Source: a virus
DNA: 23,374 nt
Direction: 5' to 3' (one strand)
Virus record (IMG/VR): IMGVR_UViG_3300031920_000007
Span: 1 to 23,374 of that record
Each line of letters begins with the position of its first letter. Within the stretch, counting starts at the first letter, position 1. The position numbers were made by a program, and so were the translations under genes. This document shows, one piece after another, positions 1 through 23,374 of this stretch. Below the pieces are notes generated by a model. It ran no database searches. It was given only the letters and a program-made list of their open reading frames with translations, and was not told the DNA's origin.

Positions 1-45
1 TGAAACCTTTTAAAAATATAGTGTATAACTAGTATATAACAATTT
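1..45. repeat. Terminal direct repeat, copy 1 (identical to 23330..23374). Signature of a circular or circularly permuted assembly.
   Basis: Bases 1-45 (tgaaaccttttaaaaatatagtgtataactagtatataacaattt) match bases 23330-23374 exactly, compared base by base. Confidence 0.9.
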
Positions 46-3548: not shown

Positions 3549-6500
3549 TTACTGTAAACAGTGTATTGAATCTTCACAACCATATGATTGATCTTCGTTA
3601 TGTAGAATCGCATCTGGTGTTCCACTATTTAATTGAATAATAGTTCCACAGTAAACTGCAAGACCACCATTTAATCTGAACTGTACTACGTCTCCAATTT
3701 GGAAATTAGATTGACCTCGTTCTAATGTCCAATTATGCATAGCTGGTATACATGATTCAATAACGTAAGTTAAAGGAGTTGGTGGATCAAGCGTACAATC
3801 CTTTGGACTAGTACATACATTATCTGATATGTAAATATTTGTATAAGCTTGACCTTGAGTCACTGTAACACTTCCAATTTCTGCACATATTGAAATTGTA
3901 TTACCACTACCAACTATCCAACCATATCCAGCTAAACCAAAGGTATAACTACCATAAGCATCTGCAAATCCAGTATTAGTAATAGTATGACATACTTGTG
4001 ATGGTGGTGGTGTTATACCTTGACAGTCATTACAGTCTGTATATTCAAAAGGTAATAAGAACTCTCCAGATGGTGTTTCTTGTGTACTAATTATTTGAAC
4101 ACATATACCTGCATAAGTCCCTGTTTCTATCTTGTATACTCCACCTACTGCTAATTGTGTAGTTGATTGAAAGTATGTTGGTGGAAAACTTTGAGTATCA
4201 CATGCAAATGCATAATAACCAAATGTAGTTGGCATAGCACATGTAGTACAGTCTGTGTGTAACTGATCATAGCACAAGTTCCCTAGTTCAACACTATCTT
4301 GTGCTATTACTGTATAACAAGGACCATAAATATCTGTATATGTGGTATCAGCTACTACCATACCAGGTACTAATTGACCACTAGGTGCAGCGTATCCACA
4401 GGAGCCTTGGTTTGTTGGATCAAGTGTAACATACCTAGTTGCATTAGGATGGTTAATAGGATCATAAGGTTGAGTACATGATTGCACTTTCCAACTAATA
4501 TATGTTGGTTGATCTGCTTCACATGTTGCACAATCTTGATAAGTGTTGTCAACAGTTGCGATAGCAGTGGTTGATTGTGTTACACCTAAGACAGTGTAAC
4601 ATGTTGCAATATTATTTAAACTTACTACATCATCTTCTTCTAAAGTTACAGTAGAAGACACTACAATGACTTGTCCACCACCACATTCTTCTACTTGATA
4701 ATATAGTAATCCATCATCACAATCTAGATTAACTGTGTATAAGTCTGACTCACATCCAAGAGAATCTATTACTCTATATTGATAACTACCTTCACATAAA
4801 TTATTTCTAGGGTTTGATGTATTACCATCAGTGTATGCAATAGTGTAAGGTCCAGTACCTCCTGCTTCTGTAATTGTGATAGAACCATTACAAGCTGCTT
4901 CGTCACCTGCACATATAGTAGGATCTACTAATACGCTAGTTGCTGTGACTAGTGTCGCTTGACTTTCTGGTACATCTACCTGTACTGTTGCAGTTCTACC
5001 AAGTGAATCAGTTACTATAAGTGTATCGATACCAACTGGTGCTGTAATAGTAAATGTAAATGGTGCAGTACCTGTTGGATTTGCAGTACCTTGTGCTCCA
5101 CTTACATCAAGTTCCCAAGTAAATCCTGGTGTACCTTCAGTAGTGATCTGTATACTACCATCTTCACCAATACAATTATCATTAAACACAGCGACAGAGA
5201 ATCCATTAAGAGGTTCGTCTAACCATATTGGTCTTTGATCATTAAGAGTAATCAATTGACATGTTACTACAGTTTCTGCACCTACTTGTGCATCTATAAT
5301 CTTTTCAGGTCTATAGTATTTACCATTAACAAAGATAACATCATCGAATGTAAGATCTTGTAGATCTACATTGTTTAAGATAAACTTAGCAGTTAGTCTT
5401 CTACTAAACTTGTTGTATATTGATGAGATGTAACGTGACCAGAATCCATCAAATAGAGTAGTACCTTGCTCAAAGTAACCTGTACCTGGTGAAGGGTTAA
5501 TATAATATCTAGTGTCGTTAGAGAAATTTAAGTTTAATGATGTCTGTTGTACTGGCCAATTCTCATAAGGACTAACTAGTGGATAGTTTGTTTGTAAGAC
5601 TGCATTACCACTATCATTATTTAGATACCATCTATGTTGATTAACTGTAATAGGTATCTTACCATTATAGAATAAGAATCTAGTTTTAGGTTTAAGAGGT
5701 AATTGTTCTGGTCTTGATGGATTCGAACTGGTCTGTTCACCTGTTACTTCTACAATACTTGGTATGATAAATGAAGGCTCTGGGTGGTTATTAGTAGTAT
5801 CTATGATTTGATCTATAGGTGTTGGCGCTATGCCTTTTACATCTATCTTACGAGTACCTTTAAGTAACTCATTAGTTGAATTAAACTGTAAGTAACCATA
5901 AGGGTGTTTGTTATTATCAAAGTGGAATTTATTAATGAAATCCTCATCTTGTGCAAAAGAGTATTCTATCGTAGCTGACTGTGTATTAAACAGAGGCTCT
6001 AAGACAGTGTCTTTATCCTCTACTAGTTTATGAGACCAGTCATAAGTTACACCACTACCAATGAACTCTTGCCATGGTTCTATGATAAAGTTATTAGGTC
6101 TTTTATTATCAGGTTGCATTACTAACCTAAACATAGTAAGGATATCTTTAACGTAGTCTATTTGTTTGTGTTCACAATCTAAATCTAATGGTGAGTAGTA
6201 GTCACCAGGTGCTGCTGTACAATCCCAATAAGTATTAGTTACTGTTGAGTAATCTATGTAGCCGCTTTGTGTATCACAAAAGACTTGTATAATATCTCCT
6301 GCTATTGGTTGATAACCACCGTTACGTGAATCCCAAGTAAGTGATGAGGTACTTCCATTACCTGCAGTATTACCTTGAGCCAGTGTCTGTAAGATAGTTC
6401 CACCTATTTGATTAACAACACATAGTCTTAAGAATACAGGCACTTGTACGTTAGGTCCTTGTGATTGTTCTACTTCTCCATTCATTTGTGCTGACGCTGA

Positions 6501-7523
6501 CATAATATAGAAGTTACCTCCTAGTGTGGCATCTGCTGTGACATTAAAGTAAGAACCTGTTGCGGGACTAGCTATTACGTAGTTATTAGCTATGTTAGTA
6601 GTAACTAAGTTATTATACATAAACTGATTAATATCATTACCACTTCCAAATTGGTTACTAGACTCAAAGTTAGTTCCAGTTACTTGATCTATTTCCATAC
6701 CAATAGACTCGTCGTTACCGAATGCACTAATATACATTTGGTGAAACCTATCTGAGTTTAAGAACTCAGACGAATAAGTATAACCAACATCTTCAAAGAT
6801 TTGATCTAAGACTCTCTTAGCTCTAATCATTGGCTTCATTCTCGTTTGAGACAATGAATGTTGAGACTTTGTAAATGATCTAACACCATTACCTGCTCCA
6901 CCTAAGGCTACTGTACCTTGCAGCGGATCTCCATCATCATAAGTATTACCATGATTTATAAGTGGCATAATGATATCGCCATCTGCAAAGCCTGCAGTTA
7001 TGTTTGCTGTCTGAGGAAATGCTAGCCAACTTTGTACTATGTTAGTATATGTAAACGGTCCTGTGAAGTCATCCGCATTAGTGTATACATTAGGTAGACC
7101 TTCCCAATCAAAGTCTGTCATTGTTAATTGACATAGAGTCTTCTCAGCAATTGTAGATGAAAAGTCTCTAGTCTCTCCTAAGAAGAGTAACTCATAGTCA
7201 GTTCTATCTAAGTCATCATTTCTAAATATCTTTTGTAGTCTGATGTGTCCCTCTCTAAATTCAGATCCATCTACTAAGATCTCTGCGTAGTTCTTTAAGG
7301 TAACATCAAAATCTATTCCATCTACTTCAAACACATTCTCAAAGAATTCATTGTTATGTCTAGTCGCTGGTACTCTAAACGTCTTAGAGAACACTGAAGT
7401 AGCATCTGCCTGTGTAATGTCTTCTATACTCAGAGTCAACTTAATTGGTTCAGTCTCGTATAGATCTAAGAAGAGTGATGTGTCACTATCTCCTTTTGTT
7501 TTGTAAACTTTAAGTTGTATCAT
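3549..7523 (-). CDS. Giant tail / receptor-binding protein. It has an N-terminal tail-protein body, two SprB-like repeats and five C-terminal cysteine-framed modules.
   Basis: 1324-aa ORF. Residues ~775-940 carry CxG.DGSI.I and GGTGPYT.....G.Y...V.D..GC patterns like SprB repeats. Residues 941-1324 form five Cys-framed modules, of which A-C end in DCxxC. Confidence 0.7.
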   Translation of the reverse strand: MIQLKVYKTKGDSDTSLFLDLYETEPIKLTLSIEDITQADATSVFSKTFRVPATRHNNEFFENVFEVDGIDFDVTLKNYAEILVDGSEFREGHIRLQKIFRNDDLDRTDYELLFLGETRDFSSTIAEKTLCQLTMTDFDWEGLPNVYTNADDFTGPFTYTNIVQSWLAFPQTANITAGFADGDIIMPLINHGNTYDDGDPLQGTVALGGAGNGVRSFTKSQHSLSQTRMKPMIRAKRVLDQIFEDVGYTYSSEFLNSDRFHQMYISAFGNDESIGMEIDQVTGTNFESSNQFGSGNDINQFMYNNLVTTNIANNYVIASPATGSYFNVTADATLGGNFYIMSASAQMNGEVEQSQGPNVQVPVFLRLCVVNQIGGTILQTLAQGNTAGNGSTSSLTWDSRNGGYQPIAGDIIQVFCDTQSGYIDYSTVTNTYWDCTAAPGDYYSPLDLDCEHKQIDYVKDILTMFRLVMQPDNKRPNNFIIEPWQEFIGSGVTYDWSHKLVEDKDTVLEPLFNTQSATIEYSFAQDEDFINKFHFDNNKHPYGYLQFNSTNELLKGTRKIDVKGIAPTPIDQIIDTTNNHPEPSFIIPSIVEVTGEQTSSNPSRPEQLPLKPKTRFLFYNGKIPITVNQHRWYLNNDSGNAVLQTNYPLVSPYENWPVQQTSLNLNFSNDTRYYINPSPGTGYFEQGTTLFDGFWSRYISSIYNKFSRRLTAKFILNNVDLQDLTFDDVIFVNGKYYRPEKIIDAQVGAETVVTCQLITLNDQRPIWLDEPLNGFSVAVFNDNCIGEDGSIQITTEGTPGFTWELDVSGAQGTANPTGTAPFTFTITAPVGIDTLIVTDSLGRTATVQVDVPESQATLVTATSVLVDPTICAGDEAACNGSITITEAGGTGPYTIAYTDGNTSNPRNNLCEGSYQYRVIDSLGCESDLYTVNLDCDDGLLYYQVEECGGGQVIVVSSTVTLEEDDVVSLNNIATCYTVLGVTQSTTAIATVDNTYQDCATCEADQPTYISWKVQSCTQPYDPINHPNATRYVTLDPTNQGSCGYAAPSGQLVPGMVVADTTYTDIYGPCYTVIAQDSVELGNLCYDQLHTDCTTCAMPTTFGYYAFACDTQSFPPTYFQSTTQLAVGGVYKIETGTYAGICVQIISTQETPSGEFLLPFEYTDCNDCQGITPPPSQVCHTITNTGFADAYGSYTFGLAGYGWIVGSGNTISICAEIGSVTVTQGQAYTNIYISDNVCTSPKDCTLDPPTPLTYVIESCIPAMHNWTLERGQSNFQIGDVVQFRLNGGLAVYCGTIIQLNSGTPDAILHNEDQSYGCEDSIHCLQ

Positions 7524-11064: not shown

Positions 11065-12291
11065 TTACCTTCCTCCCATAACGGCGTACTGTCCATATGA
11101 TTTATTTTGTAGACGATTCCAGTTTGAAATACAAAGTGCTATTATCATATCATCATGGAATGGTGTTCTAGCTGCATACCTTACGTTTCTAGTCTTAGGA
11201 TTATAAGACATCTCGAAGACTTCTAATTCATGATGTAGTTCTTGTGATAGATGTTCATCTGGTATCATGATCTGTCCTTCGTTAAATGCAAGTATTAAAG
11301 ATTCTACTATGTCTTTCTTACTAGAGTTAGAGGTAACAAACGGGTGTGTGTCTTGGTACTGCTTCTTAATAGACTCAAAGATAACTGTACCCATTGAGTT
11401 AGTCTCAATCATTAAGGTTGCACCATATTTTCTGGCTAATAAGAGTATATTGTTTTGCATTACTTCCCAATCCTTTTGGTTATCTCTGTATATTTCTATT
11501 ACATTACCTGTTTGGTCCATTGCTATAGCTACTGTGTAATCTGATTCTCTACCTAAATCTACTCCTATAAATACTTTACCATTTCTATTAGGGTATTGGG
11601 TAAATGTATTTACTTTAAAGTTAGAGAAGACCATTGATTCTCCTTCTAAGAACTCTCCTTGGTATTCTGCTCTATAGATGGCATCTGGTAATACTTTTTT
11701 GGCTGCTGCTATTTCTTCTGGATTAATATAAGGATTATCACCCTGTTCCATGCGCACGCTAGCATAGTTAGGATACTCAGGGTTCTGTCCTAATTGAAAC
11801 ATATTATAGAAATAGTCTCTACCTCTAGGTGTACTAAACAGGACTACTTTTTTACCATGTACTAGAGCAGTTGGTTCGATCGCTCTACGGTATGCATCTT
11901 CTGATTGGTATGAGGCTTCATCCATAAATAGATAGTCGAATGTATACCCTCTTAAACCATCCTCTCTTTCTGATGATCTGAAGTATATCTTACTACCTGT
12001 TTTAAGTTTGATCTCATGATTAGAGAAGTTAGTAGCTTCTACTATACCTGAATTTTTAATGGCTTCATATAGATCTTCCATTAGTTTTCTTGCTTGGCTA
12101 TAGATTGGTGCTATTATTCCTATCTTACTGCCTTTATGGTTTATTCCATAGTATAAGATTAGGTTGATTAGTAGTAGTGATTTACCCTGTTGACGCGGAG
12201 AAACCACAGTGATATACTTTTCAGGTGTATCTACTATGGTGTTAATTACTCTCTGTTGTCCAATGTGTGGATTAAATCCAGTTACATTCAT
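11065..12291 (-). CDS. terL: Terminase large subunit.
   Basis: 408 aa. Walker A-like VVSPRQQGKS, Walker B-like DYLFMDEASY, and nuclease-domain acidic motifs (IGVDLGRESDYT, FHDDMIIAL). Confidence 0.85.
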   Translation of the reverse strand: MNVTGFNPHIGQQRVINTIVDTPEKYITVVSPRQQGKSLLLINLILYYGINHKGSKIGIIAPIYSQARKLMEDLYEAIKNSGIVEATNFSNHEIKLKTGSKIYFRSSEREDGLRGYTFDYLFMDEASYQSEDAYRRAIEPTALVHGKKVVLFSTPRGRDYFYNMFQLGQNPEYPNYASVRMEQGDNPYINPEEIAAAKKVLPDAIYRAEYQGEFLEGESMVFSNFKVNTFTQYPNRNGKVFIGVDLGRESDYTVAIAMDQTGNVIEIYRDNQKDWEVMQNNILLLARKYGATLMIETNSMGTVIFESIKKQYQDTHPFVTSNSSKKDIVESLILAFNEGQIMIPDEHLSQELHHELEVFEMSYNPKTRNVRYAARTPFHDDMIIALCISNWNRLQNKSYGQYAVMGGR

Positions 12292-12617
12292 TAATCGTCT
12301 GTGTTATCCTCTTGTATTCTTTTATCAGAATCAATAGGTGGTCCGAAACTAAACTTAAGTTCTTTAAAGATATCTTCACCATCTGCACCTGTTACCTCAG
12401 TTCTGGCTAACGCTGGTACAAATCTTTCAGATAACTTAATGATTAGATCCATAGCTTTAGCAGGATCTTCTGATGCGATCTGAGATATCCATCTATCCAT
12501 GTTTGGTAGATTAGATTCTACTAACATAGCAAATGCTTCCTTCATCAGTTTAGTTGATTTGTTTGGTCCAGTTCTACCCTTTCTCTGGATATTAGGGTCA
12601 TCTTTTTTAAATGGCAT
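12291..12617 (-). CDS. terS: Putative terminase small subunit.
   Basis: 108 aa, directly upstream of and overlapping terL by 1 nt. It has a basic N-terminus and the segment DPAKAMDLIIKLSERFVPALARTEV, as seen in small terminases (from memory). Confidence 0.55.
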   Translation of the reverse strand: MPFKKDDPNIQRKGRTGPNKSTKLMKEAFAMLVESNLPNMDRWISQIASEDPAKAMDLIIKLSERFVPALARTEVTGADGEDIFKELKFSFGPPIDSDKRIQEDNTDD

Positions 12618-12738
12618 CTGTGTCTCGTTTTTTTCTATTTAGTTTCTTTAGATCTTTTATAGTTTGATCTAATATCTCGTGAGTCTTTGCTCTTATGGTA
12701 TACTTAATACCTTTAACTGTTATTTCTGTCTTTATCAT
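12607..12738 (-). CDS. Possible 43-aa ORF (MIKTEITVKGIKYTIRAKTHEILDQTIKDLKKLNRKKRDTDAI) filling the apparent gap upstream of terS.
   Basis: Hand-translated. It overlaps both neighbours (11 nt and 26 nt). There is no other support. Confidence 0.2.
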   Translation of the reverse strand: MIKTEITVKGIKYTIRAKTHEILDQTIKDLKKLNRKKRDTDAI

Positions 12739-12976
12739 GGTTAAGATCTATATAATTTTGGTTTAATGCATCTGAAGCAATTGCTATATTGTAATGGTGC
12801 ATTATATTTTTTTTAGCAGTAGTTACGCAGCGACCACAACCTGTTGGTTTAGTCGGTGTATTAGTAACATCACTTACTATCTGGAATAACATTGTATTCT
12901 CTTGTGGTGTTAGTTTTCTACTGGTGGTAAAGATTAACATGTTATCTGTTACCCATTGTTTGTGTTGCTCTTGCAT
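12713..12976 (-). CDS. Hypothetical protein, 87 aa from the internal ATG.
   Basis: The track ORF runs 12713..13030, but that start overlaps the upstream gene by 50 nt. The ATG at 12976 (MQEQHKQW) lies 4 nt past the upstream stop (12981-12983). Contains GCGRC. Confidence 0.45.
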   Translation of the reverse strand: MQEQHKQWVTDNMLIFTTSRKLTPQENTMLFQIVSDVTNTPTKPTGCGRCVTTAKKNIMHHYNIAIASDALNQNYIDLNHDKDRNNS

Positions 12977-12980
12977 ATTA

Positions 12981-13214
12981 TTAAATATATTTATAGATGA
13001 TGTTGGCGGTAACTGCAGAGATTGCAGCATAAAGTATACCTACTGGTCCAAATTGAATACACAGTGGAACTACTGACATCCAATAAGTTAGACACATGTC
13101 ACACTTAAATGGTTTGTTAGGTAAATCATCTTCTTTATCTAAGGTTACCATTAGATCTGCTGTTAAATGTCCTAAGCATGCAAATCCTATTATCTGTAGT
13201 ATTATATTAAACAT
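12981..13214 (-). CDS. Small multi-pass membrane protein with a CxxC motif.
   Basis: 77 aa. Hydrophobic N- and C-terminal segments flank KPFKCDMCLTYWMS. Confidence 0.55.
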   Translation of the reverse strand: MFNIILQIIGFACLGHLTADLMVTLDKEDDLPNKPFKCDMCLTYWMSVVPLCIQFGPVGILYAAISAVTANIIYKYI

Positions 13215-13734
13215 AGTTTATATTGTTATTATTTAGTATTTCTTTTACATAGTCTCTTGCCTCTTCTACTGCCTTTGCTATTGTAGTTCTAGGTATTTTA
13301 GTTTGGCGTGCGAGTTCTGAGAAGTTTGGCTCTTTAGTATACATTTCCAGTAGTGTAGCGCGAAACCATAACTCTATTGATTCTGCCTTCATATCTTCCA
13401 GTACACCACAGATAGCTTCTGTTGCTATATCTTGTTCGTGGTCGTATATGTTATCGTCTTGTCTATTATCGTACGAGGGTGTTAGACTGTGCACTCTACC
13501 TTTTTGTCTGTATATTGTATGATACTGACTAGTTGATGAGTTAAACGATCTCCATATAATACCAGATAAGAAAGACATACCCTTTCCACTATCAACTAAT
13601 TCTTGTGCACGTTCATGTGTCATAAATTGTTCTATTGCAAAGTGTGCAACGTCTTCAGATTCATGACTACCTTTACATATCTTCTTCGACATTAGGATTA
13701 TCTCTTCGTACTGTTTAGTTAGGAACTTATTCAA
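13207..13734 (-). CDS. Sigma-70 family (ECF-like, regions 2 and 4) transcription factor.
   Basis: 175 aa. N-terminal region-2-like EDVAHFAIEQF...FLSGIIWRSF. C-terminal HTH FSELARQTKIPRTTIAKAVEEARDYVKEIL resembles sigma region 4. Confidence 0.55.
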   Translation of the reverse strand: MNKFLTKQYEEIILMSKKICKGSHESEDVAHFAIEQFMTHERAQELVDSGKGMSFLSGIIWRSFNSSTSQYHTIYRQKGRVHSLTPSYDNRQDDNIYDHEQDIATEAICGVLEDMKAESIELWFRATLLEMYTKEPNFSELARQTKIPRTTIAKAVEEARDYVKEILNNNNINYV

Positions 13735-13954
13735 ATCTATCTAAAATATCTTTTAAGATTAGACACCTTTCGTAGTGTTCAACCTGTTCTAACAATATAA
13801 GATCTCCTTTAAGTTCATCTATTGCTGTGTCAAAGTCCATATCATTACGATCATAATAATATTCAAAGACTAGTTCTTGTATTAGTTCTTTAGCTTTATC
13901 ATCTTCTAATGAATAACCATCAAGTACTAGTTTCTTTAAGTGTTCCCTTCTCAT
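13727..13954 (-). CDS. Small acidic hypothetical protein.
   Basis: 75-aa ORF translationally coupled on both sides (overlaps of 1 and 8 nt). Confidence 0.5.
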   Translation of the reverse strand: MRREHLKKLVLDGYSLEDDKAKELIQELVFEYYYDRNDMDFDTAIDELKGDLILLEQVEHYERCLILKDILDRFE

Positions 13955-14442
13955 TATCTATCTTTCTTTTTTATGTAAGGTAGGGCTTCTCTACTAATAT
14001 GGAATTCTTTAATACCAAATGTGTTTCTATCACAAGCATTCTTTGGATCTTCTCCAGTTATTAAATTTTGGTTAAGACATCCTAAGAGGTACATCCATAT
14101 AAACTTCTGTCTATCTTCTTTTAACTCTTTAGTGTACATACATTCTTTCTTGGGTCTACCTGTGTGTTTAGTTTGTTTTATTACTGGTTCTTTTAAACTA
14201 AAGCATACTACTGTATCATATAGTTTACCAACTTCTATGTTATCAGATATCTCAGGAAACTCTCTTAACCAATCTAATAAACCCATTGATCTCTTATTAC
14301 ATATCCTTACTAAGTCATCTACGTGTAAAGTATAGGTAGTATCGAATCCATTCAATCTACACATTCTATCTGCGAATGCTACAAACGTTAATACTCCTTC
14401 GTCCTTTATTGTTGTTGCCCATTTCGGAACTTTTATTTCCAT
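13954..14442 (-). CDS. Hypothetical early protein with an AT-hook-like motif.
   Basis: 162 aa. The central KHTGRPKKE resembles an AT-hook core (GRP flanked by basic residues). Leader aaaacaaacaac-ATG. Confidence 0.5.
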   Translation of the reverse strand: MEIKVPKWATTIKDEGVLTFVAFADRMCRLNGFDTTYTLHVDDLVRICNKRSMGLLDWLREFPEISDNIEVGKLYDTVVCFSLKEPVIKQTKHTGRPKKECMYTKELKEDRQKFIWMYLLGCLNQNLITGEDPKNACDRNTFGIKEFHISREALPYIKKKDR

Positions 14443-14471
14443 GTTGTTTGTTTTATTATTTATCTTAATTA

Positions 14472-15032
14472 TTAATATTCATTATCAAAGCCTATAGCTA
14501 AAGCTTGCAGCTTAAGGTCAATATCATCAGGCTTTACTTCTTCCTTAAAAATATCAAAAGAAAACTTTTCAGGCTTGGTACTTTTTATGGTATCTTCTAT
14601 GGTAACCTTATCTGGTACCTTATCTGGTATATGGGTTGTGCACGGTGTGCATTCCAGTGGTGCATCTAGTGCACTATCACTGTGCATATTGTGCAAGGTA
14701 GTAGTGCACGGAGTGCATGGTGGCAGTGCATCAAGTGCATAGTACCCTTTATCTAATACAAACTCTAATTGATCATGATTAATCCTAAGTACTTGTCTAT
14801 TATTAGTAAGTCTTCTAACTACTTCTATTATCTCATAGTCTTTTAATTTCTTAATAATAGTAAAATACTTTCTAGATTTGATATGATACTTCTCACAGTA
14901 TTCCTTTTGAGATTGAAAGTGTTCTCCTTTCTTTTTCTTATTAGTAGACCATGAATCTATAACTGCAACCATCATTGCTTCTTCATATCCTAGTTTTAGG
15001 TGATCGTTTGGTATTTGTTTAAACTCTTTCAT
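14472..15032 (-). CDS. Winged-helix replication-initiator-like protein (lambda O-like organisation).
   Basis: 186 aa. The N-terminal ~90 aa are HTH/wing-like (KEYCEKYHIKSRKYFTIIKKLKDYEIIEVVRR). The central linker is encoded by the GTGCA repeat array. The call is an inference from architecture. Confidence 0.5.
   Translation of the reverse strand: MKEFKQIPNDHLKLGYEEAMMVAVIDSWSTNKKKKGEHFQSQKEYCEKYHIKSRKYFTIIKKLKDYEIIEVVRRLTNNRQVLRINHDQLEFVLDKGYYALDALPPCTPCTTTLHNMHSDSALDAPLECTPCTTHIPDKVPDKVTIEDTIKSTKPEKFSFDIFKEEVKPDDIDLKLQALAIGFDNEY
14605..14628. repeat. Exact 12-bp tandem duplication (ACCTTATCTGGT x2) adjacent to the iteron-like array.
   Basis: Read directly from the sequence. It encodes PDKVPDKV on the minus strand. 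Confidence 0.8.
14638..14747. repeat. Five tandem 22-bp units, each GTGCAY-N3-GTGCAN-N7. Candidate iterons / replication origin.
   Basis: GTGCA starts at 14638, 14647, 14660, 14669, 14682, 14691, 14704, 14713, 14726 and 14735. Spacing alternates strictly 9/13 bp. Confidence 0.85.
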
Positions 15033-15661
15033 TATGATCTAACTTGATTATATTGTCTCATCTCTGTCGCTGTCATGTGTTTTTGTAACCACACATATAT
15101 AGTACTATGGTGAACATCTAAAGTTTCACCAATGTCTACGAGTTTCATTCCTGAGCGTCTTAACTCTACAGCTGTTAGTTGCTTTGCTTGTTTTAATTGC
15201 ATAATAGTTTGTGTTCTATCTAAATGTACTTGACGACTTGTTTCTCTATCATTATACCATTTCTCTAATTGATCAGTAGTCATACTCTTTTTCATTGCGA
15301 TAGCAGCATTGATATTGTCAGAGTGAGTTGCCCATCTTAGATTACTAACCTTATTGTTTAGTTTGTTGCCATCTATATGATCAATAGTATTTTCATCTTC
15401 GAATGGTTCTCTCATAAATGCTAGTGCCACTAGTTTATGTACATACTTTTCAGGTGCATCGTTAGTACTGATCGCAAGATAACGGCTAGCTCTGTGTCCA
15501 CCTGTTAGAAAGGTTTTAATTGGTTTTTCTTTGTCATTGTGACCATGTGTCATCTTAACATTACCACGATCTGATATCCACCATTGATTTGATTTAGGAT
15601 ACCTACCTCTCATGTAACTTTTTGTGTGGAATAATACCCACTTTTCATTTGTGTTTGTCAT
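15032..15661 (-). CDS. HNH homing endonuclease (NUMOD4-like N-terminus, HNH_3 core, C-terminal HTH).
   Basis: 209 aa. WWISDRGNV (NUMOD4-like), HKLVALAF...IDHIDGNKLNNKVSNLRWATHSDN (HNH), and C-terminal LVDIGETLDVHHSTIYVWLQKH (HTH). Confidence 0.85.
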   Translation of the reverse strand: MTNTNEKWVLFHTKSYMRGRYPKSNQWWISDRGNVKMTHGHNDKEKPIKTFLTGGHRASRYLAISTNDAPEKYVHKLVALAFMREPFEDENTIDHIDGNKLNNKVSNLRWATHSDNINAAIAMKKSMTTDQLEKWYNDRETSRQVHLDRTQTIMQLKQAKQLTAVELRRSGMKLVDIGETLDVHHSTIYVWLQKHMTATEMRQYNQVRS

Positions 15662-15693
15662 AATACATTGTTTTTATTTGTTAGTGTATACTT

Positions 15694-15723
15694 GTTATAC
15701 TAGATATCTATCCTTTGTTTCAT
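15694..15723 (-). promoter_or_regulatory. Promoter-like element P_c (ATGAAA-N18-TATAAC) for the HNH/replication/terminase block.
   Basis: On the minus strand, ATGAAAC (15723-15717), an 18-nt spacer holding the perfect palindrome TAGATATCTA (15701-15710), then TATAAC (15699-15694). About 32 nt to the ATG at 15661. Confidence 0.5.
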
Positions 15724-15771
15724 GGCGACTCGTCACTTTTGCGCATTATATTAGGATATTATTATATTATA

Positions 15772-15801
15772 TTGAAACAGTATGAAAGTTTGGGGTATAA
15801 T
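15772..15801 (+). promoter_or_regulatory. Promoter-like element P_d (TTGAAA-N18-TATAAT), divergent from P_c.
   Basis: TTGAAA at 15772-15777, TATAAT at 15796-15801. No long ORF lies downstream, and a terminator follows ~60 nt later. Confidence 0.5.
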
Positions 15802-15807
15802 AAATGT

Positions 15808-15897
15808 AATAACACTTAGATGTTTTGTTATTATTGTTTTAATTTTATTATGTATATATGGAAAAGCCAGAGTTCATGATCGTCTCTGGCTTTTTTA
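15808..15897 (+). ncRNA. Candidate ~90-nt small transcript (sRNA, or mRNA for a 19-aa peptide).
   Basis: Bracketed by P_d and the hairpin plus T6 at 15862-15896. An internal 8-bp hairpin pairs TAATAACA (15807-15814) with TGTTATTA (15826-15833). A mini-ORF at 15820..15879 encodes MFCYYCFNFIMYIWKSQSS. Confidence 0.25.
15862..15896. terminator. Bidirectional intrinsic terminator.
   Basis: AAAAGCCAGAG - 11-nt loop - CTCTGGCTTTT, followed by TT. The A-tract and T-tract flanks allow function on both strands. Confidence 0.65.
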
Positions 15898-15910
15898 TGT
15901 TCACTAGTGA

Positions 15911-15948
15911 GCAAAAGAAAACCCGTACAAAATGGCTTAAGTACGGGT
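15911..15948 (-). terminator. Intrinsic terminator ending the late (fibre) operon.
   Basis: 8-bp GC-rich stem ACCCGTAC/GTACGGGT (15921-28 / 15941-48). On the minus strand it is followed by TTTCTTTTG. Confidence 0.7.
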
Positions 15949-15977
15949 CAACTAAAAGTAATAACTTACGACAGCTA

Positions 15978-17333
15978 TTATGCTATTCTAATTCTCAATG
16001 CTCCAGCATTATGATAAACTTGACCTAAAGCTACTCCACCTGCAGCTGCTGCTGTATCGTCTGCGTAATTTAAATTTGCATAGTTTGCAATTTGTAGCAT
16101 ATTAACTGTAGCACATGCTTCAACTGTAGCTGTTACGTTCGCTCCTAATGCTACTGCATCTGTTACAGTAGTTTGAGCACCATTACCAATTGCTACGCCA
16201 CGATCATGAACGCTGCTTGTACCAGCTTTCGCTTCATATCCAATTGCAACAGATCTACCGTTACTAGCTCCGTGTACTTCAGATCCATGACCAATAGCTA
16301 CACCACCATTTGCATCTAATTTTTTAACACGACCAATACCAATCATGTCGTCTTGACCAACACTTGTTACGTGATCTTGACCATTACCAATAACTACACA
16401 GTCTGCACCGTATGTATGATTCCAGTCCTGACCCATGAAAATGCTACGTCCTTGACCACTGTTAATGATATTATCACCAATAGAAATAGAGTCTGCTACA
16501 TCATTCGTTAAATTATTACCAATAGCAATACAGTTGTCTGCTGATGATACGTTTGCGACAGTACCTAAACTATCTGCTGATTTAATTGAATTTGTCCCAG
16601 CGCTTCCTGCTACTAAACCGGCAGCTCCTCCGCCTCCACCACCAATAGCAGTACCGTCTAATGCTAATTCTGATGTATCTAATAATGTTACTAAACCTGC
16701 AGTTCCGTTTGGAGATAGTAATGTAATACCATTTCCGCCAGTTCCACCATCAGGTGCTACAATCTTTAATGCTCTAACGTGTGTTGTATCTGAAAGATCT
16801 GCTTCGACTTGACGTCCTAAAGCAACACCACCATTAACACCGAAAGGTACGTTAGTTTGTTGACCGAATGCAACTGAACCATCAGCTCCTGCTGATGCAG
16901 TACGTCCCCATGCTGATGCGTATATACCACCTGCAGATGCATACTCACCAATTGCAGCAGTACCTACTGAAGTAGATTCTGCAAAATTACCAATTGCAAT
17001 ACTTTGGTTGCTTGTCGCTTGAGCTCCGTTACCTAAAGCTATTGCTTGTGGTCCACTTGCAGTTGCATTGTTTGTTAGTAATGCATCTGCTGTCTTCATA
17101 GAGTCTGTTCCAGTACCTGATACTAAACCACCTGCTGCGATTCCAGTTACTGTAGCTGATGTAAAGTCTGCGTTACCTGTAAATTTAATTGTTGTTGTTG
17201 ATGCTTCTAATGGTAGTGCGTTTCCTACACCATCAGAGATCACTCTGTTTACGCCATTAATAGCTGCATTATCGAGAGTCTTTAAAAGCCCTTCATATGA
17301 TGTATTAATCGCGTTTCCTGTTAATGTTGCCAT
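15978..17333 (-). CDS. Tail fibre / spike with YadA-head-like Gly/Ala repeats.
   Basis: 451 aa. N-terminus MATLTGNAINTSYEGLLKT. Repeated S/V-AIG-x-x-A motifs (SIAIGNFAES, AAIGEYASA, SVAIGYEAKA, GVAIGNGAQT, AVALGANVTA). C-terminal YADDTAAAAGGVALGQVYHNAGALRIRIA resembles a recurrent phage fibre ending (from memory). Confidence 0.7.
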   Translation of the reverse strand: MATLTGNAINTSYEGLLKTLDNAAINGVNRVISDGVGNALPLEASTTTIKFTGNADFTSATVTGIAAGGLVSGTGTDSMKTADALLTNNATASGPQAIALGNGAQATSNQSIAIGNFAESTSVGTAAIGEYASAGGIYASAWGRTASAGADGSVAFGQQTNVPFGVNGGVALGRQVEADLSDTTHVRALKIVAPDGGTGGNGITLLSPNGTAGLVTLLDTSELALDGTAIGGGGGGAAGLVAGSAGTNSIKSADSLGTVANVSSADNCIAIGNNLTNDVADSISIGDNIINSGQGRSIFMGQDWNHTYGADCVVIGNGQDHVTSVGQDDMIGIGRVKKLDANGGVAIGHGSEVHGASNGRSVAIGYEAKAGTSSVHDRGVAIGNGAQTTVTDAVALGANVTATVEACATVNMLQIANYANLNYADDTAAAAGGVALGQVYHNAGALRIRIA

Positions 17334-17358
17334 AATTTATTGTTTGTTTGTTTGTTTT

Positions 17359-17697
17359 TTAAGTTAATGACCATGTTCTTGCTTCTGATTCCCATACAAC
17401 CGTATTCTCATCCCAGATAAATGCTGGTGATGGAATAGGTGCTTGTGATAGTGCAAACCACCAAGTTCCATTCTGAGGTTGTGTAATACCATAATAATTT
17501 GCTAATGCTATTGTCCATGAACCATATAAAGGTGCAGTAATACCAAAGTGAATACAAAGTGCTTGTAACCAACTAGAATTAACTGGTTGAGTTACACCTA
17601 AGAATTCACAATAAGCTTGAAGCCAATTACCATTGACAGTTTCCGTTACTGCTCCTGCAGTTTGGTTAAATACGTATGTTTGTTGTACTGATTGCAT
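17359..17697 (-). CDS. Trp-repeat protein (18-aa repeat N-x-S-W-L-Q-A-L-C-x-x-x-G-I-T-x-P-x); fibre-associated or wall-binding.
   Basis: 112 aa. Trp at residues 25, 43, 61 and 79, an exact 18-aa period. Confidence 0.5.
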   Translation of the reverse strand: MQSVQQTYVFNQTAGAVTETVNGNWLQAYCEFLGVTQPVNSSWLQALCIHFGITAPLYGSWTIALANYYGITQPQNGTWWFALSQAPIPSPAFIWDENTVVWESEARTWSLT

Positions 17698-17700
17698 ATA

Positions 17701-17877
17701 TTATTTTCTTAATTTTGTAACAGCATCGATGATTCCTTGCGTACCAATATAAACTGTCGCTATAGTTACCCAATCGGATGACGTTAAATTACCAAACACA
17801 GCGAGAGCAGTTGCTGTGATAAACACAAACAACTTCTTACTTATCCAACTATTTAGTGTTTTGTCCACTGTTCCCAT
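17701..17877 (-). CDS. Small membrane protein, 58 aa; holin candidate.
   Basis: Hand-translated: MGTVDKTLNSWISKKLFVFITATALAVFGNLTSSDWVTIATVYIGTQGIIDAVTKLRK. Two hydrophobic segments and a basic C-terminus. Stop at 17701-17703, 3 nt before the next ATG. Confidence 0.45.
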   Translation of the reverse strand: MGTVDKTLNSWISKKLFVFITATALAVFGNLTSSDWVTIATVYIGTQGIIDAVTKLRK

Positions 17878-17924
17878 TTTTACTTAAGTATATTTTTAGT
17901 TTCTTAATATTAGTTACTGTACTT

Positions 17925-18509
17925 TTAGTTACAGCTGCTACAGTCGGGGTCGCAGTCTGTTCCACAGTCCGCATAGATCCATAAGTCATTTCGTCTTGGT
18001 ATGTTTGTTTGTAATCCACTGAAATAAGGGTTTTGTCTATTAGGTGTCATTCCATCGTTTGGTGTTGCTACAGCATATAATGGGAACATCTGAGGATGAT
18101 CTTGTAAATACTCTAACATTCTCTTATTATAAAACTCTGCAGTGTCTACAGCAGCGTCTCTAAGATACTTCATCTCATCTAAGGTAGTTGCACCAGTCTC
18201 TTCACTTGCACCATTTAAAATACCTTTTTCTACCATCTTGTACTTTAAATTAGGAAGCAACAAGTATAATGCATATTGAATTAAACATGGACCAACATAA
18301 TCCTTAAGGAATGCTGATTCATTTACTGTTAAGTCATTTGCTACTACACCCTCTTTAAGTCTTCTGTAAAAAGGTGTACCTAAAGTATCTTGGATGTAAA
18401 TATCTTGTGCTTGTAATATAGACGGAGTTAAGACATCAATACGAATATTGTTATCTAAACTTGTCCACTGTTTCATTCTTTGTTCTGAAACTAAAAGTAC
18501 TGTTTCCAT
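17925..18509 (-). CDS. Putative head-tail adaptor / connector protein with a Cys-rich C-terminus.
   Basis: 194 aa, 1 nt downstream of the portal gene. Ends in CGTDCDPDCSSCN. The function is inferred from position only. Confidence 0.35.
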   Translation of the reverse strand: METVLLVSEQRMKQWTSLDNNIRIDVLTPSILQAQDIYIQDTLGTPFYRRLKEGVVANDLTVNESAFLKDYVGPCLIQYALYLLLPNLKYKMVEKGILNGASEETGATTLDEMKYLRDAAVDTAEFYNKRMLEYLQDHPQMFPLYAVATPNDGMTPNRQNPYFSGLQTNIPRRNDLWIYADCGTDCDPDCSSCN

Positions 18510-18510
18510 A

Positions 18511-19647
18511 TTATAATGATTCTATATTTGTTTGTGGTGCAGTATCAGTTACTTGTTCTTCGTTAACTAACTTGTTAGGTTTAATCTTAATACCTACATT
18601 GTAACCTGCTAATTTTAACATATAACCAAATCCACTAATAATCTTCTTTCTCTTAGGTGTAATTACTGTACCTTCAAAGTGTGCATAAGCAACTTTAATT
18701 TCATCTGAGTTATTAGAGAATCCTGAACTATCTTTAATACCTAATAATAGAGGTGATGTAATTCTATGTGCAGTTAAGATTCTACTAGAGATTCTTTCTT
18801 CTAATAACAAATAGTAGTCATCATTTGCACTATCAATAGGAGTAACTTGTAGTTCTTTTCCTGGTTCTGAGAATGCTAAGAAGAATCTACCTGCGTTTTC
18901 TGTTCCTGTAAATGTTCTTTCAATCTCTTGATAAACATCTCTTCTTTCTTCTGGTGTTGGTACGCCATTTCTAAACTGTACAAACATAGAAGGTGCTAAA
19001 CCATTTGCTATATTGTTAGCGTGAAATCTACTAACTTGTGCATCTAATGAAATATCATTCATTGCTGCTACATATCCTGGTAATGGATACACTTCGTTTC
19101 CTGGTGTGTAGTTATAGAAATAGAATATCTGAGAAGCATTGTCACCTTTATTATCAGTTGGATCAAATGCTTTATATGTGTTATAAGGATTCTTTCTAAG
19201 ATTAGCCCAATCAGATGAGAACATATACTCTTCAACTGTATCTTCTTCATTAGGTTTACCTGATCTTACATTACCAAATGGTAAGTGGTACATCTCTGAT
19301 ATCTTGGTTCTTTCTTTATTCCAGATTACATTAATAGCATAACCTTGATAGATTGTATAATCTAAAGAAATCTTTTCAAATATCTCATCAATTGTTTCGC
19401 CTTTTGAATTAATGTATTCGTCGCCGATGATTTCAATACCATCACCGATAATACCAGCTGTAATACTATCAATACAAGTATGGTGCATTGCAGAAGTGTC
19501 ATATAATTCTATTAATGATTGTGGGAATAGGTTTAAGCCGCCATAAAACATATAGTCTTTATTACGAACTTCTCTGATATCTGGCAATTCAATTGCTTGA
19601 AATTTAGAACCGTTGATTGCGTAGATTCCTTCGGGTGTACTTCTCAT
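18511..19647 (-). CDS. Portal protein.
   Basis: 378 aa. Portal-like segments: YPLPGYVAAMNDISLDAQVSRFHANNIANGLAPS, TFTGTENAGRFFLAF, ISSRILTAHRITSPLLLGI. Confidence 0.7.
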   Translation of the reverse strand: MRSTPEGIYAINGSKFQAIELPDIREVRNKDYMFYGGLNLFPQSLIELYDTSAMHHTCIDSITAGIIGDGIEIIGDEYINSKGETIDEIFEKISLDYTIYQGYAINVIWNKERTKISEMYHLPFGNVRSGKPNEEDTVEEYMFSSDWANLRKNPYNTYKAFDPTDNKGDNASQIFYFYNYTPGNEVYPLPGYVAAMNDISLDAQVSRFHANNIANGLAPSMFVQFRNGVPTPEERRDVYQEIERTFTGTENAGRFFLAFSEPGKELQVTPIDSANDDYYLLLEERISSRILTAHRITSPLLLGIKDSSGFSNNSDEIKVAYAHFEGTVITPKRKKIISGFGYMLKLAGYNVGIKIKPNKLVNEEQVTDTAPQTNIESL

Positions 19648-21216: not shown

Positions 21217-22116
21217 TTATGCCATATCGTTAGTAGCGAATACATTCACTTCACCAACTCCAACACCTAATCTCCATGCAGCTCTGAACTTCATTACGTC
21301 AGCAGCTTCGTCATAGAAAAATCTAAATGTATCTAACTCATCAGTTAAACCTGTTGCAGCAAGGATCATTTTCCCTGGTCCAGCAAATTTGTAATCAGAA
21401 CCAACTAATCCTGAAGACTTAACAACTGTTACGTTAGTTCCTGGAAGGATTAAGATATCATTACCTTCAACTGAGTTAAAGTGATATAAGTTCTGAGCAA
21501 CTAAAGCTCTTACTAATGCTCTATATGCATCAGGAGAAACTACCATGATTAAATCGTCTCTGTCTTTTACAGACTCGTCGATTGCATCATAAAGGTCTAA
21601 AGCTTGTTCATATGCGTTAGTTGCATCCCATGCAGCTGGTGTACCAGCTTGTAATTGTGCTCCATTAGCAGAAGTAACTTGTGCTTTTAATCCTGTTGTT
21701 GCACCGAAACCATTGATTAAGAAACCTTCGTTGTATTTTCTCAATTTGTCTGCATAAGACTCAGAGATTACTTCTTCGAAAGGAATCATATCGTTACCAG
21801 TTCCTGCGTTCATGAATGCTGATTGATACTTAGCTCTTAAGTCTTCAACACACATTTCAGTTTTAGACTGTAATGATTCGATTGTTACGTTTACTTGTGA
21901 GTAAGTTACTTCACCGTCTGAAGTCCATCCACAAGATAATGCAGATACTGGCAATGCAGCATCTACTAAGTTAATTGAAACAGTACCTGAAGTGAATCCT
22001 GATCTAAGATCAACATAGTCAAGTAGGTCTGTTTTTAAAACTACCTTTGAGATTAAATCTAAAGATAATTGGTCTGTATAAGCAGGCAATGCTGCTACAT
22101 TAAATCCAAATGCCAT
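21217..22116 (-). CDS. Major capsid protein (HK97-fold type).
   Basis: 299 aa. Size, its position after the scaffold gene, the downstream attenuator and the N-terminus MAFGFNVAALPAYTDQLSLDLI are typical of HK97-like MCPs. Confidence 0.75.
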   Translation of the reverse strand: MAFGFNVAALPAYTDQLSLDLISKVVLKTDLLDYVDLRSGFTSGTVSINLVDAALPVSALSCGWTSDGEVTYSQVNVTIESLQSKTEMCVEDLRAKYQSAFMNAGTGNDMIPFEEVISESYADKLRKYNEGFLINGFGATTGLKAQVTSANGAQLQAGTPAAWDATNAYEQALDLYDAIDESVKDRDDLIMVVSPDAYRALVRALVAQNLYHFNSVEGNDILILPGTNVTVVKSSGLVGSDYKFAGPGKMILAATGLTDELDTFRFFYDEAADVMKFRAAWRLGVGVGEVNVFATNDMA

Positions 22117-23328: not shown

Positions 23329-23358
23329 TTGAAACCTTTTAAAAATATAGTGTATAAC
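23329..23358 (+). promoter_or_regulatory. Promoter-like element P_a (TTGAAA-N18-TATAAC) upstream of ORF 58..204 across the circular junction.
   Basis: TTGAAA at 23329-23334, an 18-nt spacer, TATAAC at 23353-23358 (the second copy has TATAAC at 24-29). It is one of four copies of TGAAAC-N17-TATAAY in the window, and all four are intergenic. Confidence 0.45.
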
Positions 23359-23374
23359 TAGTATATAACAATTT
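23330..23374. repeat. Terminal direct repeat, copy 2.
   Basis: Exact 45/45 identity with 1..45. The unique genome length is therefore 23,329 bp. Confidence 0.9.

Follow-up and report, generated by a model that had tools for sequence, protein, structure and literature searches.

The origin of phage lambda lies in the middle of gene O and contains iterons, which are imperfect inverted repeats, together with an AT-rich tract (PMC7466680). A similar layout is found in plasmid pSK41: four Rep boxes in the central part of rep are bound by the N-terminal domain of Rep, DnaG is bound by its C-terminal domain, and the domain between them, encoded by the origin, is a linker that can be dispensed with (PMC5703833). 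The N-terminal winged helix of RepA_N initiators binds semi-palindromic repeats (PMC7145576). Classical plasmid iterons are asymmetric and bind monomers, their phasing is functionally required, and the unwinding element can consist of 13-mer repeats, as in oriC and RK2 (PMC5043065); a 22-bp unit is typical, as exemplified by the five 22-bp repeats of pSK639 (PMC5703833). Here we describe a locus of comparable build in viral DNA, namely positions 1 to 23,374 of the IMG/VR record IMGVR_UViG_3300031920_000007 (referred to as the window; 23,374 nucleotides, to which all positions refer unless another locus is named). In the middle of a gene for a 186-amino-acid initiator-like protein lies an array of five 22-bp units. 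The five units almost certainly serve as the cognate binding sites of this protein, part of whose coding sequence they form, and they probably constitute the central part of a theta-type origin similar in kind to those of lambda O and RepA_N; this origin would lie inside the gene of its own initiator. The features concerned are:

14472..15032, minus strand: gene for the 186-amino-acid initiator-like protein with an N-terminal winged helix, a disordered linker and short C-terminal motifs (open reading frame (ORF), PHROG matches, AF2)
14637..14746, no strand: iteron array of five 22-bp units (14637-14658, 14659-14680, 14681-14702, 14703-14724, 14725-14746)
14639..14651, no strand: dyad site 1, TGCACGGTGTGCA, perfect palindrome arms
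14661..14673, no strand: dyad site 2, TGCATCTAGTGCA
14683..14695, no strand: dyad site 3, TGCATATTGTGCA
14705..14717, no strand: dyad site 4, TGCACGGAGTGCA, perfect palindrome arms
14727..14739, no strand: dyad site 5, TGCATCAAGTGCA

The iteron array in the window and in related loci

The pentamer GTGCA is found ten times on the + strand of the array (14638, 14647, 14660, 14669, 14682, 14691, 14704, 14713, 14726 and 14735), with spacings of 9, 13, 9, 13, 9, 13, 9, 13 and 9 bp. An earlier note on this DNA, made from its letters alone, had reported ten copies within 110 bp at alternating 9- and 13-bp spacing, and all positions were confirmed. The remaining 23 kb of the genome contain 25 copies on the + strand; the expectation for 110 bp is hence about 0.12, and the probability of finding ten or more is about 1e-16. 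Self-identity of the array at lag 22 amounts to 0.61, as compared with a mean of 0.27 ± 0.056 over the 110-bp windows of the genome and a maximum of 0.44 elsewhere, and an independent repeat search of the genome recovered a 22-bp direct-repeat family.

The array corresponds to codons 96-132 of 186 and thus starts just past the winged-helix domain. On the gene strand, the GTGCA boxes fall in frames 2, 2, 0, 0, 1, 1, 2, 2, 0 and 0. Because the box occupies successive reading frames, the peptide repeats only every 22 residues (ALDALPPCTPCTT at residues 99-111, ALDAPLECTPCTT at 121-133). Frame count and peptide agree with the previous statement that the box is read in all three frames and that the protein repeats every 66 bp.

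As TGCA is its own reverse complement, the ten boxes pair up into five dyads, which is the better description. These dyads are five perfect matches to the pattern TGCAY-N3-RTGCA, that is, 13-bp imperfect palindromes whose centres are exactly 22 bp apart. Hence, repeats and phasing were correctly recognized before, whereas the boxes are five palindromes and not ten independent direct boxes. The dyad symmetry of the sites points to protein dimers as binders. Isolated perfect matches to the same pattern at 2177-2189 in the tape-measure gene and at 21622-21634 in an ORF of 299 amino acids are probably due to chance.

DNA was compared among 16 close loci, including the window, and four distant loci (L019-L022). 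Scans of viral and of metagenome contigs contributed three loci each, and most of the comparative DNA was retrieved via exact-protein look-ups. A hidden Markov model search of 1.84 billion representative proteins returned only 17 clusters, and the family is therefore small. In the protein alignment the N-terminal domain and the C-terminal third are conserved, and residues 98-132 are hypervariable. This hypervariable segment is free of indels, the exception being one 17-residue insertion just upstream of it in P0016. All 16 close loci (16/16) possess five 22-bp units at the same gene position and in the same register, with half-sites that are lineage-specific. The distant members, with about 20-35% protein identity, show the same build. 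Sites were assigned as follows:

Class A, TGCAY-N3-RTGCA: window, L001, L004, L007, L011, L012, L014
Class B, TGCCA-N3-TGGCA: L002, L008, L015, L018
Class C, GGTYCA-N3-TGACC: L010, L013
Class D, GGCTC-N5-GGGCC: L003, L016, L017
Distant sites, TGGCCA-N3-TGGCCA, five at 22-bp pitch: L019
Distant sites, TGGAC-N5-GTCCA, five at 22-bp pitch: L020-L022

In every class, unit positions 2-6 and 11-15 have the highest information content, and values are low for the centre and for the spacers. The dyad axis maps to unit position 9.0 in all four close classes, with a complementarity of 66-73% versus mostly 0.1-0.4 for other axes. As count, pitch and dyad form are conserved out of frame while sequence and peptide vary, we conclude that selection acts on the DNA. 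The earlier note had favoured selection on DNA over selection on the peptide and had suggested comparing relatives for box spacing and peptide drift; across the 20 loci, spacing is kept and both half-sites and peptide change, which favours that view.

Two class-D arrays harbour one foreign unit each. In L016 (gene 1239-1796) unit 3 is a class-A site, TGTGCATATTGTGCA, and in L017 (gene 1633-2181) unit 4 is a class-C site, GGTTCATTATGACC. Such units, possibly relics or the result of recombination, suggest that specificity is switched one unit at a time. P0031, a protein of 133 amino acids encoded on a 37-kb contig, is truncated; from the array on it apparently derives from a class-B array read in another frame, followed by an early stop. 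This frame change suggests an indel inside the array of that genome.

The initiator-like protein and its predicted recognition helix

With the window protein alone as query, PHROG matches were weak (phrog_428 at 1e-4; phrog_678, 'replication initiation O-like', at 7e-4). The picture is more consistent for the family set, which comprises 31 homologues with 53-100% identity. Here phrog_428, 'replication initiation protein', is matched by 31/31 members (best E 2e-8) and phrog_678 by 28/31 (best E 6e-10); 20/31 match phrog_270 and 17/31 a DnaD-like PHROG. It should be noted that phrog_678 is a remote-homology cluster broader than the lambda O family PF04492, which is not matched by the query itself. 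PF06970 (RepA_N) was not found in the 31 members at E ≤ 1 among the 25 of 41 families listed, and a search of PDB chain sequences with the family profile gave nothing significant. The identity of the protein as an initiator is supported by family and fold, not by membership in a curated family.

An AF2 model built with the family alignment comprises the following elements:

14742..15032, minus strand: winged-helix DNA-binding domain, residues 1-97 (AF2, Foldseek)
14838..14876, minus strand: predicted recognition helix (helix 3), codons 53-65 (AF2 limits)

The pLDDT values of the N-terminal domain are 82-92 over most of its length and lower at residues 1-10 and 31-40. Predicted are helices at 16-30, 42-49, 53-65 and 86-95, with a wing formed by strands 69-74 and 80-84. 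The best PDB matches found with Foldseek are N-terminal domains of RepA_N initiators from staphylococcal plasmids (4pql, 4pta, 4pt7, and 5kbj, which is a Rep-DNA complex). Named matches among predicted viral structures (BFVD) are phage replication initiators and replisome organisers. The confident winged-helix model upholds the previous assumption of a 186-amino-acid protein with a winged-helix-like N-terminus and the array in the middle of its gene. Likewise, the proposed initiator-like character of the gene gains support from the phrog_428 and phrog_678 matches and from the RepA_N domains being the closest PDB neighbours.

Residues 107-150 have pLDDT values below 50 and are predicted to be disordered, and further low-confidence stretches extend up to residue 166. 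The site-bearing DNA thus also encodes a disordered linker, which is tolerant of almost any sequence. No folded domain is predicted for the C-terminal ~50 residues, which contain short helices at 145-151 and 173-185 with pLDDT values of ~50-60. Within this low-confidence region, the C-terminus (residues ~155-186; 14472-14570) carries the conserved motif FSFDIFKEE and an acidic/aromatic tail, DFDN(D/E)Y, which is replaced by F(L/M)xxLDI in other members and in distant relatives. The tail types reassort independently of iteron class. Presumably, this tail resembles protein-recruiting tails such as the C-terminus of SSB.

The predicted recognition helix varies along with the site class. Among N-domain columns, mutual information with site class is highest for 53, 54, 55 and 57 at the start of predicted helix 3, the helix that usually serves for recognition, followed by 66 and by 70, the latter being located in the first wing strand. 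Residues 53, 54, 55 and 57 are uniform within each site class, and the helix motifs read IKSRKYFTI or IKPRNYNNI in class A, TSxRTYCRxL in class B, SPSKYKRCL in class C and S(R/K)NTYKRCL in class D. P0016 (locus L014), which is 58% identical to the query, has kept both the TGCA sites and the IKSRKYFTI helix, whereas sites and helix have both switched in class B and C members that are 58-63% identical to the query.

The origin reading and its alternatives

The most conserved DNA of the 1.4-kb region is not the array but the adjoining segment at 14526-14642, downstream of the array in gene direction. Mean pairwise DNA identity reaches 0.83-0.89 in this segment, as compared with 0.53-0.57 for the array and 0.45-0.55 for the genes on either side. 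Codon identity, determined for same-residue pairs, is 1.00 for nearly all codons from 133 to 168 and typically 0.3-0.6 for invariant residues of the N-terminal domain. The block consists of three parts, that is, a junction, five 12/13-bp repeats and a nearly invariant 33-bp stretch:

14568..14636, no strand: junction (TATGGGT on the + strand; CAACCCATA on the gene strand) and five 12/13-bp repeats
14532..14564, no strand: nearly invariant 33-bp AT-rich block (TTTTCTTTTGATATTTTTAAGGAAGAAGTAAAG on the gene strand) encoding FSFDIFKEEVK

The repeat units display GGTA on the + strand at 14577, 14589, 14601, 14614 and 14626, which on the gene strand corresponds to TACNA followed by a purine-rich 7-mer. 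An exact 12-bp tandem, ACCTTATCTGGT twice at 14605-14628, had been noticed before; it is indeed exact and belongs to this five-unit array. The 33-bp block is nearly identical at synonymous sites in 15 close loci, and the GC content at 14527-14559 is 27%. The 12/13-bp repeat block is recognisably homologous in the distant relatives too, and its DNA is more deeply conserved than the DNA-binding domain of the initiator. The purine fraction of the conserved block (0.58) equals the gene average. Inspection by eye spoke against both DnaA boxes and IHF sites as the identity of the 12-bp repeats, since neither consensus fits (5/9 for TTATCCACA).

Base N of TACNA is identical across all five units in 10/15 loci. 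It is C in the window, T in L002, L017 and L018, and A in L008. The units change in concert although this base is the second of its codon in units 1-2 (Pro, Leu or Gln) and the third in units 3-5 (Thr). The choice of base corresponds neither to iteron class nor to the type of C-terminal tail.

We infer binding, dimer stoichiometry, origin function, the place of unwinding and recruitment of the host replisome along the following lines. The 186-amino-acid protein would dimerise via its N-terminal winged-helix domain, with one dimer occupying each 13-bp imperfect palindrome TGCAY-N3-RTGCA. Assembly on the five sites, at a pitch of 22 bp or about two helical turns, would then yield a phased complex of protein and DNA similar to the O-some of lambda. 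Such a complex may stress the adjoining conserved DNA at 14526-14636, with its five 12/13-mers and the invariant AT-rich block, and thereby cause opening. Finally, the host helicase and replisome might be recruited by the conserved short motifs at the C-terminus of the initiator, perhaps with the help of a 162-amino-acid protein encoded downstream. By analogy with oriC, RK2 and lambda, the conserved block is a candidate for either the place of duplex opening or the binding site of a second factor.

It is tempting to go one step further and regard the locus as an origin with two separate recognition arrays, the dyad iterons and the 12/13-bp repeats, although we consider this rather doubtful. 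Such an arrangement would imply a second sequence-specific reader, candidates for which are the disordered C-terminal segment of the initiator or the 162-amino-acid protein acting on single-stranded DNA, or a host factor. If true, and taken together with a small initiator for which neither a folded C-terminal domain nor a loader can be recognised, this would be a minimal origin/initiator system in which the host helicase is recruited by a route undescribed for lambda O or RepA_N.

Several observations weigh against an origin of the proposed kind. No Pfam family reaches the gathering score across the 31 members, and Phage_rep_O (PF04492; 9/31, best E 1.9e-3) and DnaD_N (10/31) are matched below threshold only. 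The fold matches to RepA_N are weak (E ~1e-2, target-normalised TM 0.43-0.48), with MarR-type regulators close behind. The earlier note had drawn a parallel to the lambda origin in gene O; the intragenic layout and the inverted-repeat iterons bear this out, whereas homology to lambda O is not demonstrable, given that a profile comparison of the family with lambda O (hhalign) yielded a non-significant probability of 0.1. No recognisable P-type helicase loader follows the gene, which is a further difference from lambda. DnaA boxes (TTATCCACA, at most one mismatch) are absent from 12275-18679, and their genome-wide count is at chance level. GC/AT skew does not switch at the array and provides no origin mark in this genome, where a single direction of transcription dominates. 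As to base composition, the flanks had been described as AT-rich. They are so modestly (24-30% GC versus 36% for the genome), and the contrast arises mainly from the 52% GC of the array; AT-rich flanks are thus weak evidence for an origin. The conserved block, with 60-77% AT versus 64% for the genome, is not more AT-rich overall. An AT-rich flank as unwinding element was rejected on composition, which singles out neither side; 14526-14642 stands out because of its DNA conservation, not its AT content. Lastly, common descent and close physical linkage, as opposed to independent co-adaptation, may explain part of the match between site class and helix 3, and because of these confounding factors the covariation is supportive but does not constitute proof.

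As the predicted fold is generic, a purely regulatory array is possible. In that case the winged-helix protein would control transcription, binding within its own coding sequence and throttling read-through to the downstream early and late genes, and would have no part in replication. MarR, ArsR and CodY-type regulators rank just below the RepA_N matches, weak Pfam matches include SarA/Rot and Crp-type helix-turn-helix (HTH) domains, and transcription of the entire block passes through the array in a single direction. Nevertheless, we judge this explanation unlikely because 31/31 members match replication-initiator PHROGs and none matches a repressor family. Moreover, no matching dyad was found in the upstream intergenic/promoter region of the initiator gene, and phased dyads in a coding linker beside a conserved block correspond to the documented layout of lambda O and RepA_N (PMC7466680, PMC5703833). 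Regulation and origin function are, in any case, not mutually exclusive.

A packaging-recognition site (pac- or cosB-like) or a centromere-like partition site, bound by a winged-helix adaptor, is a further reading of the array; phased repeats bound by winged-helix or other small DNA-binding proteins define cosB, pac and plasmid centromeres as well. In line with packaging, a gene for an HNH endonuclease abuts the initiator-like gene and the terminase genes are located ~2 kb downstream. Yet small terminase and partition proteins are not among the PHROG matches, the usual TerS position directly upstream of the gene for the terminase large subunit (TerL) is taken by another small ORF (12291..12617), and the HNH gene is absent or located elsewhere in several relatives that retain the array. 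Furthermore, no ParA/ParM-type ATPase was found among the ORFs scanned. We therefore regard a packaging or partition site as very improbable. The repeats might finally represent low complexity generated by slippage in a tolerant disordered linker, devoid of any function at the DNA level. A linker that is predicted to be disordered and a poorly conserved peptide would fit this idea, but the comparative data exclude it for practical purposes: five units at 22-bp pitch without indels are constant across relatives down to ~25% identity, the dyad axis has the same unit position in four sequence classes, both half-sites are replaced in concert in all units, and they covary with residues of the recognition helix.

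Genome context and comparison with known systems

The genome is complete and was assembled as a circle of 23,329 bp, as shown by an exact 45-bp overlap between the ends of the window (1-45 and 23330-23374). Within this overlap, at 19-40, an 11-bp unit (TAGTATATAAC) occurs twice in tandem. Almost all genes are located on the minus strand. Recognisable are those for TerL, portal and tape measure, a protein matching both head-maturation-protease and portal families, a neck protein and, with a weak match, a holin. In agreement with what had been noted previously, no polymerase or helicase, nor a primase, was recognisable among the ORFs scanned. Other genes referred to here are:

15032-15661, minus strand: HNH endonuclease with C-terminal HTH, abutting the initiator gene directly upstream
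13954-14442, minus strand: ORF of 162 amino acids, located after the initiator gene in most relatives, with 35 invariant residues
13207-13734, minus strand: protein of 175 amino acids with weak antitermination Q-like and sigma-factor PHROG matches, between replication and terminase genes
3549-7523, minus strand: tail protein of 1324 amino acids with a sub-threshold SprB-repeat match
15978-17333, minus strand: protein of 451 amino acids with YadA-head repeats above threshold
21217..22116: ORF of 299 amino acids with only a weak PHROG match of unknown function

The position of the HNH gene varies among relatives, in which it is found at the same place, is replaced by genes for small HTH proteins or is located downstream of the initiator gene (L010); this is typical of a mobile homing endonuclease. 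The 162-amino-acid ORF has no PHROG or Pfam match. Its AF2 model (pLDDT 73) gives weak winged-helix-like fold matches, with a RepA_N N-terminal domain at the top (E 0.055). In view of the lacking family match and the weak, winged-helix-like fold matches, a function as helicase loader was rejected. The 175-amino-acid protein is possibly a late-gene regulator, and the proteins of 1324 and 451 amino acids are likely host-recognition fibres. Searches for tRNAs and Rfam families found nothing, and a promoter/terminator scan around the initiator gene remained at chance level.

TerL is at most 28% identical to that of any deposited phage, and the lineage is an uncultured one, known mostly from marine samples and without cultured relative. 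The initiator-like protein had no tblastn match in 50,697 deposited phages and no relative in 185,579 species genomes; because of the latter result there is no host or prophage clue from this side. The SprB-repeat match is the sole and very weak hint of a host belonging to the Bacteroidota.

Our analysis locates a probable origin along with its initiator in an uncultured marine phage lineage. It also provides a sequence-only signature for origins of this type, namely an out-of-frame 22-bp periodicity in a hypervariable linker of fixed length. At least six half-site specificities occur naturally in the family while the scaffold stays the same, and each goes along with changes in a few residues of the recognition helix. 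This makes the family convenient for studying how a winged helix and its sites change specificity in step and for building orthogonal origin/initiator pairs. The layout as such is already known from lambda and some plasmids, to which this phage lineage without cultured relative adds another case, and the current understanding of replication initiation is not altered. Loose ends of greater interest are the concerted base variation in the second repeat array, the very small initiator and the range of six or more site specificities.

Similar to the situation at this locus, the sites of iteron plasmids with Rep_3-type initiators (RK2, R6K, P1, F, pSK639) are phased with the helical repeat. However, iterons of these plasmids are located outside rep, whereas those described here are dyad-symmetric and intragenic, and DnaA boxes, which many though not all such plasmids possess, are missing near the array.

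In lambda, the origin occupies the position within the initiator gene that the array has here, with the DNA-binding N-terminal domain encoded on one side and the C-terminal part on the other. Four 18-bp iterons, spaced 20, 24 and 23 bp, are annotated inside O in the lambda record; these too are imperfect inverted repeats, bound by dimers in lambda, and their spacing of ~20-24 bp compares well with the 22 bp found here. Also common to both systems would be a further cis element downstream of the iterons in gene direction and a replisome supplied by the host. In lambdoid phages, iteron sequence and N-terminal domain differ together between relatives. Differences concern the number and spacing of sites (five at a rigid 22-bp pitch versus four at variable spacing), the size of the protein (186 versus 299 amino acids, with no folded C-terminal domain predicted for the former) and the adjacent element, which is a 12/13-mer repeat block and not strikingly AT-rich or strand-asymmetric.

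The RepA_N initiators (pSK41 Rep, pTZ2162 RepA, PLE RepA) are the best structural neighbours of the N-terminal domain. As in pSK41, the repeats are situated centrally in the initiator gene, where they encode a segment that is predicted to be disordered in the phage protein. While pSK41 has four boxes, there are five dyads here, and the folded, host-genus-specific C-terminal domain of RepA_N proteins contrasts with ~50 low-confidence residues with short motifs. The biological setting differs as well, with a Firmicutes plasmid on one side and a marine tailed phage on the other. In structure and architecture, the closest parallel to the locus described here is thus RepA_N, as represented by pSK41 Rep, at least as much as lambda O.

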